From a virus (Duplodnaviria; Heunggongvirae; Uroviricota; Caudoviricetes), in IMG/VR virus record IMGVR_UViG_2718218139_000011: DNA of 45,230 bases, one strand, 5' to 3'. How positions within the stretch are numbered: position 1 is the stretch's first letter; the number at the start of each line of letters is the position of its first letter. A program made the translations under genes and the position numbers. Positions 15,778 to 31,042 of the stretch are shown here, piece by piece. A model generated the notes under the pieces. The model was given only the letters and a program-made list of their open reading frames with translations, had not been told where the DNA came from and did no database searches.

Positions 15778-16131
15778 TTATCGTCGCCGGTTAACAGCGG
15801 GTGGTTGCCCACGGTTGAGCCAGAGATAACAACTGCCCCCGTCATCCGGAGAAACACGATCCACCCAGAACATCTCGCCGTTAATGGTCAGAGTGTCACC
15901 ACGCCGCACAGCACGCACCGTATCCGTCCGCACAAATAATGACGGGCAGCTTCCTTCAATACGGACCCCGCCACCGGCAAAACCCAGCGACTCCGGATCG
16001 TCAAAAACCCCCTGAACTTCGCCGCCACGCTGTGCACCGGAGGTGAACTGCGCACTGATGCCCATCACTTCAACGATCGTACTGTCCACCCCGGCGAGGG
16101 CAGCATCAAAGGCATTCTGAAAATCACGCAT
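15778..16131 (-). CDS. FII: Head-tail connector protein FII
   Basis: 117 aa; lambda gpFII-like including C-terminal DRVSPDDGGSC.LWL.RG.PPAVNRRR. Confidence 0.95.
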   Translation of the reverse strand: MRDFQNAFDAALAGVDSTIVEVMGISAQFTSGAQRGGEVQGVFDDPESLGFAGGGVRIEGSCPSLFVRTDTVRAVRRGDTLTINGEMFWVDRVSPDDGGSCYLWLNRGQPPAVNRRR

Positions 16132-16507
16132 ATTCAGCCGTTCCGTGCTGTATCATGGCCGTTGCCAGTGATGATGGCACCAGAACACGCATACCCCGTA
16201 ACGCCAGCTCAACGGGACGACCTGTCTCCGGGCAATACCCCATTACTTGCAGGCACTTCCGTACCCGGACGGCTTTAACATCATCCGGAGCATCCGTGTT
16301 GTTCAACTGCTCACCATCGTCTGTGTGATTTTGATCAGACCCGCTCTCATCAGAGTGCATAATGCCCTCCGGGGAAACAGCAAACTCCTCTTCCCACTCA
16401 GACACACGCTGAGCAATATCCGCAGCACTCCCCGACATATCCGCCTCGCGCCCCAGCAGGCCAGCCAGTTGACGAAGACGATTCAGATTTTCTTCTTTTG
16501 TTGCCAT
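16124..16507 (-). CDS. FI: DNA packaging protein FI
   Basis: Start taken at internal MATKEENLNRLRQL; acidic middle region as in lambda gpFI. Confidence 0.8.
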   Translation of the reverse strand: MATKEENLNRLRQLAGLLGREADMSGSAADIAQRVSEWEEEFAVSPEGIMHSDESGSDQNHTDDGEQLNNTDAPDDVKAVRVRKCLQVMGYCPETGRPVELALRGMRVLVPSSLATAMIQHGTAEYA

Positions 16508-16558
16508 CTCAGTCTCCTGCGAAAAAAGACACGGGGGCATTCCGCCCCCGCTCACGGC

Positions 16559-17587
16559 TTATTTCACCTGTACCACCACAAACTCATCCGGATCCGGCAG
16601 CACCATCAGCGGTGCGGACTGCATCATGGTGAATTCACGGGCCGGATCGCCCACGGTCATCCAGTGTTTCGGATAACGGGAAGAGGCCACCACACCTTCG
16701 GACAACGCCTGCGCATCCTGAATGGCACCATAGCAACGGATGCCCTCAGCAGCCGTATTTCCCAGGACCAGCGTGCCCTCCGGCAGATAACGTTTTTCGG
16801 TACCGTCTTCTGCCACATAAGACGTTTTCGCCACCACAATGGCCAGATCGCCGTAATACCCCTTGAAGGACACCACTGCGCCCAGATCTTTCACTGCCGT
16901 TTCGAGTTGTGAATTTGAGCCGCGACGGGTATCCAGTTTTTCGCGGAACAGCTTAAAGCCATTCAGCAGACGCCAGACAGTACCGTCCATAATGGCGATA
17001 TTCACAAGACCGCTGGCCTGATCGCAGTAGAGGTCAATATCATGCGTCGGATCAAACGTATCACGGTCCTGCTCAGACCATTTTTTACCGTCAGCCTGCT
17101 CAATGTTATTTCCTTCAGAGCGCCCGAAATCCACCTCGACAGTATCAAACTGCTCCCCTTCCATGGTGTATTTACCATACAGCACGGCATTCACCGCCTG
17201 CATTTCCTCCACCTGGACAATGGCATGCTCTTCCTGTTTGAGGTTATCAGTGATGATACGCAGACGACGGTAGGCCGGGTCGTTCAGTTGCGCCGGATCT
17301 TCACCGGGAAGGCGCTCCACCGCCTGCTGGTAATTAAATTCGTGTTTCGGCTTGACGTAGCCCGGACGCAACACGCGGGTTTCACCACCGCGATGACGCA
17401 GCACTTTTCCTTCAACAACCGGGGAGACATAGGCTGCCACCGGCGTTTTTCCGGTAATTTTGTCCAGCATCACCTCTTCGGTGTGGAAATTCACCGTACG
17501 GCGGAAAAACAGCTCCAGAAACAGCGCACGAAATTTCACTTTTTGTTCGGTATAACCGAGTAACTGGCGAGTCGTAAACAATCCCAT
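16559..17587 (-). CDS. E: Major capsid protein E
   Basis: 342 aa; collinear with lambda gpE. Confidence 0.95.
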   Translation of the reverse strand: MGLFTTRQLLGYTEQKVKFRALFLELFFRRTVNFHTEEVMLDKITGKTPVAAYVSPVVEGKVLRHRGGETRVLRPGYVKPKHEFNYQQAVERLPGEDPAQLNDPAYRRLRIITDNLKQEEHAIVQVEEMQAVNAVLYGKYTMEGEQFDTVEVDFGRSEGNNIEQADGKKWSEQDRDTFDPTHDIDLYCDQASGLVNIAIMDGTVWRLLNGFKLFREKLDTRRGSNSQLETAVKDLGAVVSFKGYYGDLAIVVAKTSYVAEDGTEKRYLPEGTLVLGNTAAEGIRCYGAIQDAQALSEGVVASSRYPKHWMTVGDPAREFTMMQSAPLMVLPDPDEFVVVQVK

Positions 17588-17644
17588 AAATCAGTTCCTT
17601 TCATTCAGAAATCAGTCAGGCCACCGTGGTGGCCTGATAACGTG

Positions 17645-17992
17645 TTACGGCAGCGCCGCGTGACTCAGGGCTGTGCCGACAAAGGCATTGGCCTTTTTGT
17701 GTTCATCCACACTTTCAGGCCAGCGGATTGCCTCCGTCGCAAAGGTCCCCGACTTGTAATACGTCAGCACCTTCTCTGTGCCTTCAAGCGGCAGTACCAG
17801 TATGCCAACCGCACTACCGGCTTTCTGTCCGTCCCAGACCACCAGTTTCCCGGTGGACTCATCCAGCATCAGGGGGGTCAGTGCCGGTGTTGCAGAAGAA
17901 ATCCCGCTGCTGCCTGTGGCGGTATGAGCCGGATCATTACCGGCAAAAATACGTACTTCCGTACGCTGTTCAGTGATGGTTTTTGTTACCAT
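17645..17992 (-). CDS. D: Head decoration protein D
   Basis: 115 aa; lambda gpD-like (NDPAHTATG, TPLMLD, YKSGTF). Confidence 0.95.
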   Translation of the reverse strand: MVTKTITEQRTEVRIFAGNDPAHTATGSSGISSATPALTPLMLDESTGKLVVWDGQKAGSAVGILVLPLEGTEKVLTYYKSGTFATEAIRWPESVDEHKKANAFVGTALSHAALP

Positions 17993-18028
17993 ATTCTTGA
18001 AACCTCCTATTGATGATCAGCACTGACT

Positions 18029-19534
18029 TCATGGCATGGCCATGAGCATTTTCACGTCCGCATCACCGTCTGCCGACGTCTGTGACACGCCACCCTGCAC
18101 CGCTGCCGGTGAATGGTTCGCCATGAAATGCTCAAACATGGCGGTTGTGGATGCAGAGACCGGTTCTGCCTTACCTGATCCCGCAGCCAGCACAGCCCGG
18201 GCGTTCTCCACGGTCATTCCCGGGCAGGCAGCCAGTTGTTCAGCCTGCGCCTCAGCCCCTTTTGCCTCATCCAGGGCCATAATCTGATCACGGAGTGAAG
18301 GTCCGGCATCTGCCTGCGGTGAAGCCGCCAGGACAGGGCGGGCTTTTTCCACCGTCATATCCGGCATCGCCGCCAGCGTTGCCGCCAGTTGTTCACGTCC
18401 TTTCGCCTCTTCACACGCCATAATGCGATCGGCTTCACTCTGCGCGGATGTCACCGGCTGCTGCGGTGCTGCCGCGGCCAGAATCGCCCGGGCCTGTTCA
18501 ACGCTCATGCCCTGTTGACCTGCCAGCATCGTGGCAAGCTGTTCACGTCCTTTCGCTTCCTGACACGTCAGGATCCCCATCACCCGCTGGTTCTCCTGCG
18601 CGGCGGCTTCCGTTGCAGTTAATTGCGGCATAGTGCCTCCTGTATCATGTGTGTTCAGCGCCGTTGCCATCACACTGATGGCATCCGACGCATTGATTAA
18701 TTCATCCGCCAGCCCGGCCTCAATACCGGACTGACCTTCAAAAACGGCAGCCTCTGTCCCCGTGACAGCTTCCACAGACAGCCCCGTATACATCGCCACT
18801 TTTTCGGCAAACATCCGGTGCGCCGCATCAATCCGCTGCTGCATGTCCTGGCGAACCTCTGACGGCAACGCTTCAAACTGATTGCCATCCACCTTGTGCG
18901 CCCCGGCGTAAATCAGCGTGATATCCACACCGGCCTGCGCCAGATGACCGGCATAGCTGACATGGCTCATCATCACGCCAATGGAGCCGATACGGGATGT
19001 CTGGGTAACCAGACGTCGGGAGCAGGCCGACGCCAGCAGCATGGCCGCAGAACAGGCCGTGTCATTGCACAGTGCCCAGACAGGCTTCTGCTGCCGGAGG
19101 CGATAAATCATGTCAGCGCAGTCAAACGCACCGGCGGCCTGACCGCCCGGACTGTCAATGTCCAGCAGTACGCCCCGCACCTGGCTATCCGCCATTGCCT
19201 GCTGAAGACAGGCTACAATGCCGTCATAACCTGTCATTCCGGAAAATGGCCGCATACCGCCCAGCCGGTGCACCAGCGTGCCGGTCACCGGCAGTACAGC
19301 AATGCCGTTCACCACCCGGTAAACACGGGCCGGTCGTTTTCCTCCGGCCATGTACTCGTCCGTTTCAGCCAGCATTCCGGGAGCATCAAGCTGTACCTGC
19401 TGTTGTGGTACCGAAAGACTTGCTGCCCCCATCTCGCGCCCGAGCGCGCAAAAGAAAACCCGCGCATAGGCGGGCTCCAGAAGCAGCGGTTCATTGAATG
19501 CTGCGGCAATAATGTGTGAAAGATTACGTCTCAC
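18029..19534 (-). CDS. C: Prohead protease/scaffold C (S49 ClpP-like) with Nu3-like repeat region
   Basis: 501 aa; lambda gpC-like N-terminal protease; three internal ~35-aa repeats of EAKG.E..A..LA...GMTVE.AR..LAA in the C-terminal third. Confidence 0.9.
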   Translation of the reverse strand: MRRNLSHIIAAAFNEPLLLEPAYARVFFCALGREMGAASLSVPQQQVQLDAPGMLAETDEYMAGGKRPARVYRVVNGIAVLPVTGTLVHRLGGMRPFSGMTGYDGIVACLQQAMADSQVRGVLLDIDSPGGQAAGAFDCADMIYRLRQQKPVWALCNDTACSAAMLLASACSRRLVTQTSRIGSIGVMMSHVSYAGHLAQAGVDITLIYAGAHKVDGNQFEALPSEVRQDMQQRIDAAHRMFAEKVAMYTGLSVEAVTGTEAAVFEGQSGIEAGLADELINASDAISVMATALNTHDTGGTMPQLTATEAAAQENQRVMGILTCQEAKGREQLATMLAGQQGMSVEQARAILAAAAPQQPVTSAQSEADRIMACEEAKGREQLAATLAAMPDMTVEKARPVLAASPQADAGPSLRDQIMALDEAKGAEAQAEQLAACPGMTVENARAVLAAGSGKAEPVSASTTAMFEHFMANHSPAAVQGGVSQTSADGDADVKMLMAMP

Positions 19535-21116
19535 GTGGTGTTGTCTCCTCTTCCGGCCTGCGACTCTCCGCTATCTGCTGCTGATACGCCTGCGCTATCC
19601 ACACCGGGCGTGAGAGTCCGGCTTTTTCCCGCTCTGCAGATTCCCTGACCTGCTGGCGGAAAATGTCCTGATAATCCTCGCCCATCAGCGCCAGCTCTTT
19701 CTCATACGTGCTCAGTCCGGCCTTAATGCGCATCACCGATTCCTGGACTTCCTTGAGCCCGTCAATGGCCATTCTTCCGGCACCAATCCACTCTGCCCGT
19801 GACCAGGCTGATCGCGCCTGATAAAAATCAAAACGCGCCCGTGGCGGACGGATAATCCCCCGAAGAAGTGCCTCTTCCAGCCAGCAGGAAAACATCTGCG
19901 TGGCCAGCCGGGCCGCAATAAATTTTCGCCGCCCCATAAAATAGCGCCACGACTCATTGGCGGAGGCGCGGGCACTTGAGTAACTGACCTTCGAGTAATC
20001 ACTGGACAACTGTTCGTAGGAAACGCCAAGACCGGCAGCGATATACCGCAGCAGCGCCTGTTCAAGCGCCGAAAATCCATTGTCTGAATCCTGCGCAGTC
20101 TGCAGTTTCAGCTCGTCACCGGGAAAAAGGTGCGGAATTTTGACACCGCCCAGCGTCACGTGATTCGTGTCATACCAGCTGGAGAACTTCTCCAGAATAT
20201 TAATAAGCGGATTATCCTTCTGCCCCTGCGGCGCACCGGCGATATATTCAAAGGCCTTTTCGGTATCAAGTTCACTTTCAATCGTCGCTGCATACATGGC
20301 TTTCACAATGGCCGACTGAAGCTGCGTGGCCTGCAGGGAATCGAGCATCTTCAGCCGTTCCATAACGCTGTAAAACTGATTGGCCCCACGGGTCTGCCCG
20401 TCCTCCACCGGCTCGAAAATATGCAGCATGGCCGGACGCCCGGTGGGAAGTTCACGCGGGATCCGCTCCCATCGACCACTACCCGGGAACGGAAAATCAT
20501 CCTCACAGATATGGTACGCAACGGCCCGTCCATGCCGATCGACCTCCACCCCGGCCCGCAGAAAACGGTTCCCCATACCGTGTCCCGGCGTGTCCACCCG
20601 TTTCGGACTCACGGCTTTAAAACGCGTACGAAACAGTTGCGTGGTCTCCGCATCCCAGACCGGCTGCACAAAGATTTCGCCGTTAAACGCATGAACGCCC
20701 ACACCTTCACGGATAAATTCCGTGAACGTGCGTTTTCCTTCCACGTCGATCTCGCCAGACATCCCTTCGGCGTATTCCGACCAGGCCGCCTCCACCTCAT
20801 CGACAAAGCTTTTTGCTGCGGTCTCCCGCATCCCCAGCCAGCGCCAGTTCGGACGGTAGCTGATCAGAAACATATGCCCGACAATGTGATCCTTATGCAG
20901 TGCCACCGCATTAGCCGCTATTCCGTTATTGCGCACCAGATCATCTGCCCGGGCATTCCCCAGACGCAACGCGGGCAGCAGGGCCGCATCGGCACTCTGC
21001 GCCGGTGGCAACCACTCCGCCATTTGCCCGCCAAATCCTGCGCCGCCCCCGTTGTAGCTGAGACTCTCACGAAGCGGAATGCCGTTCACATCAATCAGGA
21101 CAGGTGTTCGTTTCAT
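19524..21116 (-). CDS. B: Portal protein B
   Basis: 530 aa; lambda gpB-like. Confidence 0.95.
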   Translation of the reverse strand: MKRTPVLIDVNGIPLRESLSYNGGGAGFGGQMAEWLPPAQSADAALLPALRLGNARADDLVRNNGIAANAVALHKDHIVGHMFLISYRPNWRWLGMRETAAKSFVDEVEAAWSEYAEGMSGEIDVEGKRTFTEFIREGVGVHAFNGEIFVQPVWDAETTQLFRTRFKAVSPKRVDTPGHGMGNRFLRAGVEVDRHGRAVAYHICEDDFPFPGSGRWERIPRELPTGRPAMLHIFEPVEDGQTRGANQFYSVMERLKMLDSLQATQLQSAIVKAMYAATIESELDTEKAFEYIAGAPQGQKDNPLINILEKFSSWYDTNHVTLGGVKIPHLFPGDELKLQTAQDSDNGFSALEQALLRYIAAGLGVSYEQLSSDYSKVSYSSARASANESWRYFMGRRKFIAARLATQMFSCWLEEALLRGIIRPPRARFDFYQARSAWSRAEWIGAGRMAIDGLKEVQESVMRIKAGLSTYEKELALMGEDYQDIFRQQVRESAEREKAGLSRPVWIAQAYQQQIAESRRPEEETTPRET

Positions 21117-21319
21117 AACCTCACTCCCAGCGGACGACGGCGACGGCGGGTTGTCCCCAGCACTGACTCCGCATCATTGATCGCACGGTTAAGCTCATCC
21201 AGAGAGGCCGCCGTATATTCAATTCTGCGACCATCTTTCTGGACAGACACCACCCGTTTACCGGTTAATAAATCAAGGCGCGCCTGACGCAGCGCCTGCA
21301 GTTCAGCGACTGTAACCAT
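21113..21319 (-). CDS. W: Head-tail joining protein W
   Basis: 68 aa; lambda gpW-like (LLTGKRV..VQKDGRR.E.TA.S). Confidence 0.9.
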   Translation of the reverse strand: MVTVAELQALRQARLDLLTGKRVVSVQKDGRRIEYTAASLDELNRAINDAESVLGTTRRRRRPLGVRL

Positions 21320-30966: not shown

Positions 30967-31042
30967 TGGTGGCCCTTGCTGGATTTGAACCAGCGACCTG
31001 GCGATTATGAGTCGCTCGCTCTCACCACTGAGCTAAAGGGCC
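30967..31042 (-). tRNA. tRNA-Ile2-like, anticodon CAU (ileZ-like)
   Basis: GGCCCTTTAGCTCAGTGGT...CTCATAATCGC...GGTTCAAATCC...CCA; resembles E. coli ileX-type tRNA. Confidence 0.8.

Follow-up and report, generated by a model that had tools for sequence, protein, structure and literature searches.

In phage lambda, gene Nu3 overlaps gene C in the same reading frame; its product acts as a transient scaffold, and Nu3–Nu3, Nu3–C, Nu3–E and Nu3–B interactions have been reported (PMC3224144). A second pair of this kind was laid out in the 1990s for phage 21, in a GenBank entry titled "Bacteriophage 21 head gene operon" (M81255.1). There, gene 6, the Nu3 homolog, is a 603-nucleotide (nt) gene nested in frame within gene 5, the C homolog; it has its own ribosome-binding site and contains three repeat_regions, the "Tri1 box", "Tri box" and "Tri3 box", marked "function unknown; putative". 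Here, we analyze a gene of the same type, with three protein repeats in its 3′ third, on the minus strand of a 45,230-nt stretch of DNA from a virus of the Caudoviricetes (IMG/VR record IMGVR_UViG_2718218139_000011). This whole stretch is called the window below.

The window gene has the same ends as gene 5 and is 96.2% identical to phage 21 genes 5/6 over all 1506 nt; phage 21 and its relatives together give 96.2–96.3% identity, full length. The Tri1, Tri and Tri3 boxes map to window positions 18461–18564, 18314–18424 and 18170–18283, respectively, where they fall in units 1, 2 and 3 (U1–U3) of the array and translate to exactly the three unit cores. The complete phage 21 genome of 2021 (OL657228.1) names the two products "capsid protease/scaffolding protein" and "scaffolding protein". 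The triplication is an ordinary feature, already known and publicly annotated in phage 21 since the 1990s, and the window gene is almost certainly a phage-21-type version of the lambda C/Nu3 nested pair, carried on a lambdoid prophage in an E. coli of the attaching-and-effacing type. Of 5,426 complete E. coli genomes, 1,869 contain the 21-type Nu3 region (at least 90% identity), with 1,863 matching at least 80% of the region, and the matched gene is annotated in E. coli genomes as an "S49 family peptidase". For the S49/Nu3 gene itself, no match above 96.8% identity is seen in complete E. coli genomes.

The triple repeat is genuine. A sequence-only reading of the window had pointed to three copies of a motif, EAKG.E..A..LA...GMTVE.AR..LAA, and the motif fits all units, the deviations being GMSVE in U1 and DMTVE in U2. 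Compared against itself with BLOSUM62, the protein shows three diagonals far over background, at offsets of 50, 47 and 97 amino acids (aa), with dot-plot window scores of 79, 70 and 62 against 30 for the next best. Pairwise local alignments of the units score 106, 87 and 104, whereas shuffles average about 25 (standard deviation about 5, maximum 53), giving z = 11–17. The units measure 53, 47 and 50 aa in U1, U2 and U3, and each has a conserved core of 34 aa (ILTCQEAKGREQLATMLAGQQGMSVEQARAILAA, IMACEEAKGREQLAATLAAMPDMTVEKARPVLAA and IMALDEAKGAEAQAEQLAACPGMTVENARAVLAA, respectively). The repeat length first given, about 35 aa, thus describes the conserved core, but the period is 47–53 aa. Similarly, the interval to which the repeat had been assigned, 18029–18640, spans the nested Nu3-like open reading frame (ORF) and most of its Shine-Dalgarno sequence, but the repeats proper occupy only 18146–18595. 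They lie inside the Nu3-like portion, as had been claimed: PHROG 8399 ("head scaffolding protein"), the family of lambda Nu3, matches the nested protein in three stretches (E = 6.4e-34), and a single unit matches with E = 8.9e-15.

An internal Nu3 start had also been suggested as possible, and here several lines of evidence agree. The strongest Shine-Dalgarno match in the gene, AGGAGG, precedes ATG 18631 with a 4-nt spacer (the sequence upstream of the ATG reads ...ACAGGAGGCACT). The encoded Met aligns with Met309 of lambda C (record coordinate 5342), an invariant column in the lambda C alignment; the lambda codon is likewise preceded by AGGAGG, and its product is 131 aa. In phage 21, the annotated gene 6 begins at the codon homologous to ATG 18631, and phage 21 records place a ribosome-binding site at the position homologous to 18636–18641. 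Database proteins P0002, P0003 and P0006 begin at this same MPQLTA, gene callers having independently given 199–200-aa products. When other internal starts were sought that could give shorter isoforms, weak candidates only were found, GTG 18583 and ATG 18580, both inside U1 and preceded by AGGAG at distances of 9 and 12 nt; no matching AGGAG was seen at the lambda position in an alignment read by eye. In the RefSeq record of lambda (NC_001416.1), nu3 is given as 201 aa from 5132, and no Shine-Dalgarno is visible there. This start coordinate looks outdated, the start homologous to that of the window and phage 21 being 5342.

The gene was said to encode a prohead protease, and the evidence is in keeping with this. 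Pfam model PF01343 (Peptidase_S49) matches with E = 1.6e-35 (122.8 bits, cut-off 24.9), the protein is 57% identical to lambda C, and the gene is flanked by a lambda-type portal gene and by D and E homologs. No Pfam domain falls on the C-terminal 200 aa. Structures of SppA (3RST and 4KWB) match aa 77–289 with E = 1e-16, and the NCBIfam SppA models score under the equivalog cut-offs set for them, in line with a paralog from a phage. In the alignment with B. subtilis SppA (3RST), Ser162, the candidate nucleophile, takes the position of the serine, and the window, phage 21 and lambda proteins all have it; Lys214 is also invariant, yet is paired with no lysine in the pairwise SppA alignment. As far as homology and context can tell, 18029–19534 is a gene for a lambda gpC-type S49 prohead protease, with proteolysis as the predicted activity.

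How the repeats fare in homologs was a further question raised by the sequence-only reading, as was the comparison with lambda C and Nu3. Lambda C (439 aa, 57% identity to the window protein, with an aligned internal start) has one unit, ENSRIMGILNCEEAHGREEQARVLAETPGMTVKTARRILAAAPQ, after a 36-aa insertion. Copies in other database relatives were counted with a hidden Markov model of the unit. Salmonella and metagenomic homologs at 47–63% identity keep three units (P0028, P0033–P0041, P0064, P0075, P0093, P0094), and so the condition that had been set for refuting the repeats, a lack of conservation in homologs, does not hold. Variants from E. coli differ: P0018 has two units; P0022 likewise has two, being a clean hybrid of units 1 and 2; in P0014, two are accompanied by what remains of unit 2; and P0026 has four, in an intact-looking D-E-FI-FII module. 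Units 2–4 of P0026 share 0.81–0.84 identity with one another, which suggests a recent amplification in that lineage. The homolog search with the 200-aa query returned mostly gene fragments and was used for variants, not for frequencies.

Unit-by-unit comparison speaks to the age of the array. U1 is 0.85 identical to Salmonella unit 1 and 0.62 to the lambda unit; U2 and U3 are 0.72 and 0.60 identical to Salmonella units 2 and 3. The window units resemble their own neighbours less than this (identity at most 0.57), and the single unit of lambda groups with unit 1. Because each unit is closest to the same-numbered Salmonella unit, and lambda's groups with unit 1, the 21-type triplication is, on these identities, ancient and vertically maintained, with other lineages having expanded or contracted independently.

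The unit itself is far more widespread than its triplication. When a profile of the three window units was run against 1.84 billion representative proteins, it matched 538 clusters at E of 1e-3 or better. Among the best 150 of these, 134 have one copy, 7 have two and 4 have three; in the same set, the unit sits a median of 47 aa from the C-terminus of S49 proteins of roughly 350–580 aa, or in Nu3-sized ORFs, and 71 of the one-copy proteins are shorter than 250 aa. Three distant Nu3-sized proteins (P0108, P0159, P0212) have two divergent copies each, suggesting independent duplications. The unit has the consensus xxERxRIxxILxCxEAKGRExLAxxLAxxPxMTVExAxxILAAAP, in which the I, E-A-x-G, A, A, A and L positions are nearly invariant. 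Neither Pfam nor NCBIfam holds a model that covers the unit, and PHROGs covers it only within whole-protein families. A tblastn search with one unit against a phage collection found it in lambda, N15, phi80, HK225, and Xylella and Stenotrophomonas phages; these matches are unusable for copy counts, as the low-complexity filter cut them to residues 1–34 and one place per record. As judged from the profile matches, which span about 540 protein clusters, only the unit is widely conserved within the Nu3 region. In two further records, P0162 and P0129, a lambda-identical S49 protein is joined to a tail tape-measure (TMP_2) or tail protein L domain; our guess is that these architectures may not be natural and may have arisen from lambda by deletion or in cloning vectors.

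Structure prediction points to a small folded module. For a single unit (aa 311–361; 78-sequence alignment), AlphaFold gives a predicted local distance difference test (pLDDT) score of 92.8 and a predicted template modeling (pTM) score of 0.74, with helices at residues 2–13, 21–28 and 35–44. The AlphaFold2 model of the 200-aa scaffold (15-sequence alignment; mean pLDDT 70, pTM 0.29) repeats three short helices in every unit at pLDDT of about 80; confidence is low for the linkers and for roughly the last 45 residues, the tail consisting of one low-confidence helix and otherwise falling below pLDDT 50. Each copy would then be a small autonomous three-helix domain, made up of helix A (R-[IV]-M-x-I-L), an EAKGRE turn, helix B (LAxxLA), a PGMTV loop and helix C (ExARxILAA), and the units would be joined by Pro/Ala/Gln-rich linkers in the manner of beads on a string. 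The 200-aa model is not one compact fold, and Foldseek found no meaningful match to it in the PDB (E > 2); nor did the unit show structural similarity to a solved helix-turn-helix coat-binding scaffold domain of the P22/phi29 type. Just past U3, the sequence TTAMFEHFM (window 18107–18145, aa 464–476) resembles helix A of the units (EADRIMA, LRDQIMA), and TALDRLM, which follows the unit in lambda C (aa ~415–425), does so likewise, as in other one-unit proteins. Because of this resemblance, the arrays may end in a partial extra unit.

What might the units do? In the scheme we favor, one reading frame would give two proteins, a 501-aa S49 serine protease and a 200-aa scaffold identical to the protease C-terminus. 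The unit may be the scaffold's protein-contact module, through which scaffold chains would bind one another and/or the major capsid protein or portal. We read it in this way because it is the only element of the Nu3 region kept across hundreds of clusters and because it is common to scaffold and protease. Since the protease bears the same modules as the scaffold, it could co-assemble into the prohead as a scaffold mimic; once inside, it would digest the scaffold and then itself. With three copies, a scaffold chain would have a valency of three, the lambda chain being monovalent. This binding-module mechanism is drawn from lambda and from protease/scaffold pairs in general, and we consider the case for and against it to be evenly balanced. 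Taken as a whole, a phage-21-type nested pair whose units are scaffold contact modules is probably the best explanation of the locus. More tentatively, and with the balance tilted against it, we suggest that the Tri unit is an uncurated autonomous three-helix domain forming the core of all lambda-type Nu3 scaffolds and of their S49 C-termini, with copy number setting valency. If this is true, a folded core would conflict with the description of gpNu3 as an intrinsically disordered protein, and the number of units (one in lambda, three in phage 21, four in some E. coli prophages) would set the capsid/scaffold bridging valency of each chain.

Several points weigh against this scheme. The link between the unit and a binding partner is drawn by analogy. 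Lambda works with a single unit, and prophage variants with two units or a partly deleted unit exist; because of this, three copies may not be required. It is also possible that the C-terminal tail, and not the units, is the capsid-binding element. Finally, a 2011 paper by Medina et al. reportedly calls lambda gpNu3 "intrinsically disordered" in its title, which is at odds with a confidently folded module. Some of these points would also fit a reading in which the units are neutral padding, a disordered Ala/Pro/Gln-rich spacer whose triplication was an accident that lengthened the tether to a functional C-terminal tail. Lambda needs one unit only, natural prophages have lost part or all of a unit in frame, the title in question speaks of disorder, and the arrangement of units relative to one another is undefined in the AlphaFold model. 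Other findings weigh against padding: it is the unit, and not the linkers or tail, that is kept across the 538 clusters with nearly invariant positions, units 1, 2 and 3 are each orthologous between the E. coli and Salmonella lineages, the single-unit model is of high confidence, and array length is exactly preserved in nearly all E. coli copies sampled (see below). We regard padding as unlikely.

Instability at the DNA level is another matter. The sequence-only reading had noted matching DNA repeats and a possible site of expansion or contraction, and in its strongest form this would make the array a slippage or recombination hotspot with frequent copy-number change and scaffold length variants within populations. 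Matching DNA repeats do exist, in that gapless seed extension recovers a 46-nt family of three copies at 70–74% identity, spaced by 141 and 150 nt. They are diverged, though: nucleotide identity among the cores is 58–68%, the same codon is used at just about half of the conserved residues, the longest exact run common to the units is about 17 nt (read by eye), and Tandem Repeats Finder (17600–19600, minimum score 30) reported no array with a 141–159-nt period and only an 11-nt microrepeat. The repetition lies in the protein and has diverged; it is not a DNA tandem repeat. Because only about half of the conserved residues have the same codon while each unit stays closest to its same-numbered Salmonella counterpart, selection acts on the protein. 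Copy number does differ among relatives, from one to four, P0026 has near-identical units, P0022 is a hybrid of units 1 and 2, and there is a 57-nt in-frame deletion in U2 at 18332–18388, flanked by an 8-nt direct repeat, CTGGCGGC, and found in several clusters and in the complete genomes NZ_CP173546.1 and NZ_CP173570.1. Yet when 60 records were taken evenly down the ranking of 1,874 E. coli matches, 58 had an uninterrupted 612-nt match, one had the 57-nt deletion and one was truncated, and the phage 21 deposits of 1993 and 2021 are the same length as the window gene. Thus, the three-unit form is stable within E. coli, and length variants exist but are rare. Given that the DNA copies are only 58–68% identical and that 58 of 60 records keep exactly 612 nt, the array is not an active slippage hotspot, and we hold the unstable-repeat explanation to be very improbable. 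Least probable of all, to a degree that makes it barely credible, is a function at the nucleic-acid level, whether CII sites, an antisense promoter, or RNA structure controlling Nu3 translation. In its favor, OL657228.1 annotates two "transcription factor CII" sites (TTGYN6TTGY) in the gene, corresponding to window 18379–18392 and 18613–18626. This pattern, however, is seen 7 times in the window where chance predicts 9.95, a count reached by 86 of 100 shuffles, and is present in only one of the three units; moreover, it is the amino acids that are conserved while the codons diverge, and hundreds of distant clusters have the motif at the protein level. With pattern frequency at chance level, the CII-site/antisense-promoter reading was set aside.

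The features of the gene and its neighbors are collected in the table. Pfam matches Phage_portal_2 upstream, and HDPD, Phage_cap_E, Packaging_FI and Phage_attach downstream.

Table. Coordinates of the protease/scaffold gene, its parts and the surrounding head genes in the window
Feature	Position	Strand	Remarks
gpC-type S49 prohead protease/scaffold fusion gene	18029..19534	(-)	501-aa ORF, GTG start; homolog of phage 21 gene 5 and lambda C
Peptidase_S49 catalytic domain, aa 146–293	18656..19099	(-)	Pfam PF01343 match
Shine-Dalgarno AGGAGG of nested scaffold gene	18636..18641	(-)	Sequence 5′ of ATG 18631; phage 21 and lambda counterparts
Nested in-frame Nu3-type scaffolding gene, 200 aa	18029..18631	(-)	Phage 21 gene 6 homolog, same ends
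Repeat unit 1 (U1), aa 314–366	18437..18595	(-)	Core 18473–18574
Repeat unit 2 (U2), aa 367–413	18296..18436	(-)	Core 18323–18424
Repeat unit 3 (U3), aa 414–463	18146..18295	(-)	Core 18182–18283
C-terminal tail, 38 aa (TTAMFEHFMANHSP...DADVKMLMAMP)	18032..18145	(-)	Conserved in the 21-type group and different from the lambda tail (alignments)
Terminase gpA	21303–23288	Same strand as protease gene	
68-aa ORF at lambda W position	21113–21319	Same strand as protease gene	By position alone
Lambda-family portal	19524–21116	Same strand as protease gene	
Head decoration protein D	17645–17992	Same strand as protease gene	
Major capsid protein E	16559–17587	Same strand as protease gene	
FI	16124–16555	Same strand as protease gene	
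FII	15778–16131	Same strand as protease gene	

Elsewhere in the window, the product of a 250-aa ORF at 1–753 (+) is a TccP/EspFU-like, "EspF repeat-containing" effector of the type III class whose 47-aa repeats are rich in proline, and the underlying tandem repeat (256–732) has a DNA period of 141 nt, 3.4 copies and 97% identity. Because it is nearly identical at the DNA level, the effector repeat, unlike the Tri units, is likely to be the repeat in the window whose copy number can change. In matching E. coli genomes, the region beside the effector (window 834–4400) is annotated with an IS3-family IS600 transposase, an Ail/Lom outer-membrane protein and tail-fibre genes, and the best E. coli matches to the first 4.4 kb are 99.2% identical. 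Further along, the segment 27776–31042 (-) includes a tRNA-Met/Arg/Arg cluster at 30793–31042 and a 645-aa protein at 27776–29713 (-) with DUF1737, SASA esterase and DUF6645 domains. We take this late region to resemble the Stx-converting phage type; the gap of about 1.08 kb between the 645-aa gene and the tRNA cluster looks too short for stx genes. At 43420–43564, a 72-nt unit is perfectly duplicated in tandem (100%), with a Shine-Dalgarno-like GGAGC followed by ATGAGCA.

As a discovery, the triplication counts for little, having long been part of the phage 21 record and belonging to an allele family found in about one-third of complete E. coli genomes. What the present analysis adds is a widely conserved unit with a confident three-helix prediction, which no Pfam or NCBIfam model covers, and which occurs naturally in versions of one to four units. 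This series offers ready variants for probing the scaffold-shell contact and the recruitment of the protease in lambda-type phages.

Finally, the locus may be set beside known systems. The nested herpesvirus genes UL26 and UL26.5 encode a protease and an assembly protein that have a C-terminal scaffold part in common, through which the protease co-assembles in the procapsid. These genes, and other phage protease-scaffold pairs, are analogies; they are not known to have a sequence relationship or detected fold relationship to the pair described here, or tandem three-helix units. Tandem three-helix-bundle binding modules are otherwise represented by the domains of staphylococcal protein A, by GA modules and by UBA/CUE domains, as fold analogs only. 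Lambda is much closer. C/Nu3 has the same protease domain, an internal Shine-Dalgarno and ATG, a common C-terminus and the same position between portal gene B and D/E; the capsid proteins are 62% identical, and U1 is homologous to the lambda unit ENSRIMGILNCEEAHGREEQARVLAETPGMTVKTARRILAAAPQ. The differences lie in the number of units, in the size of Nu3, 131 aa in lambda versus 200 aa in the window, and in the C-terminal tail, where lambda is unrelated in sequence. Closest of all are phage 21 genes 5/6, which have the same gene ends, nested start, ribosome-binding site and three boxes, at 97% amino-acid identity. Here, the differences are allelic only and come to a few amino-acid substitutions, for example K/N in the EAKG motif of U2, although the window copy lies in a prophage with a TccP/EspFU-type effector gene and not in phage 21 itself.

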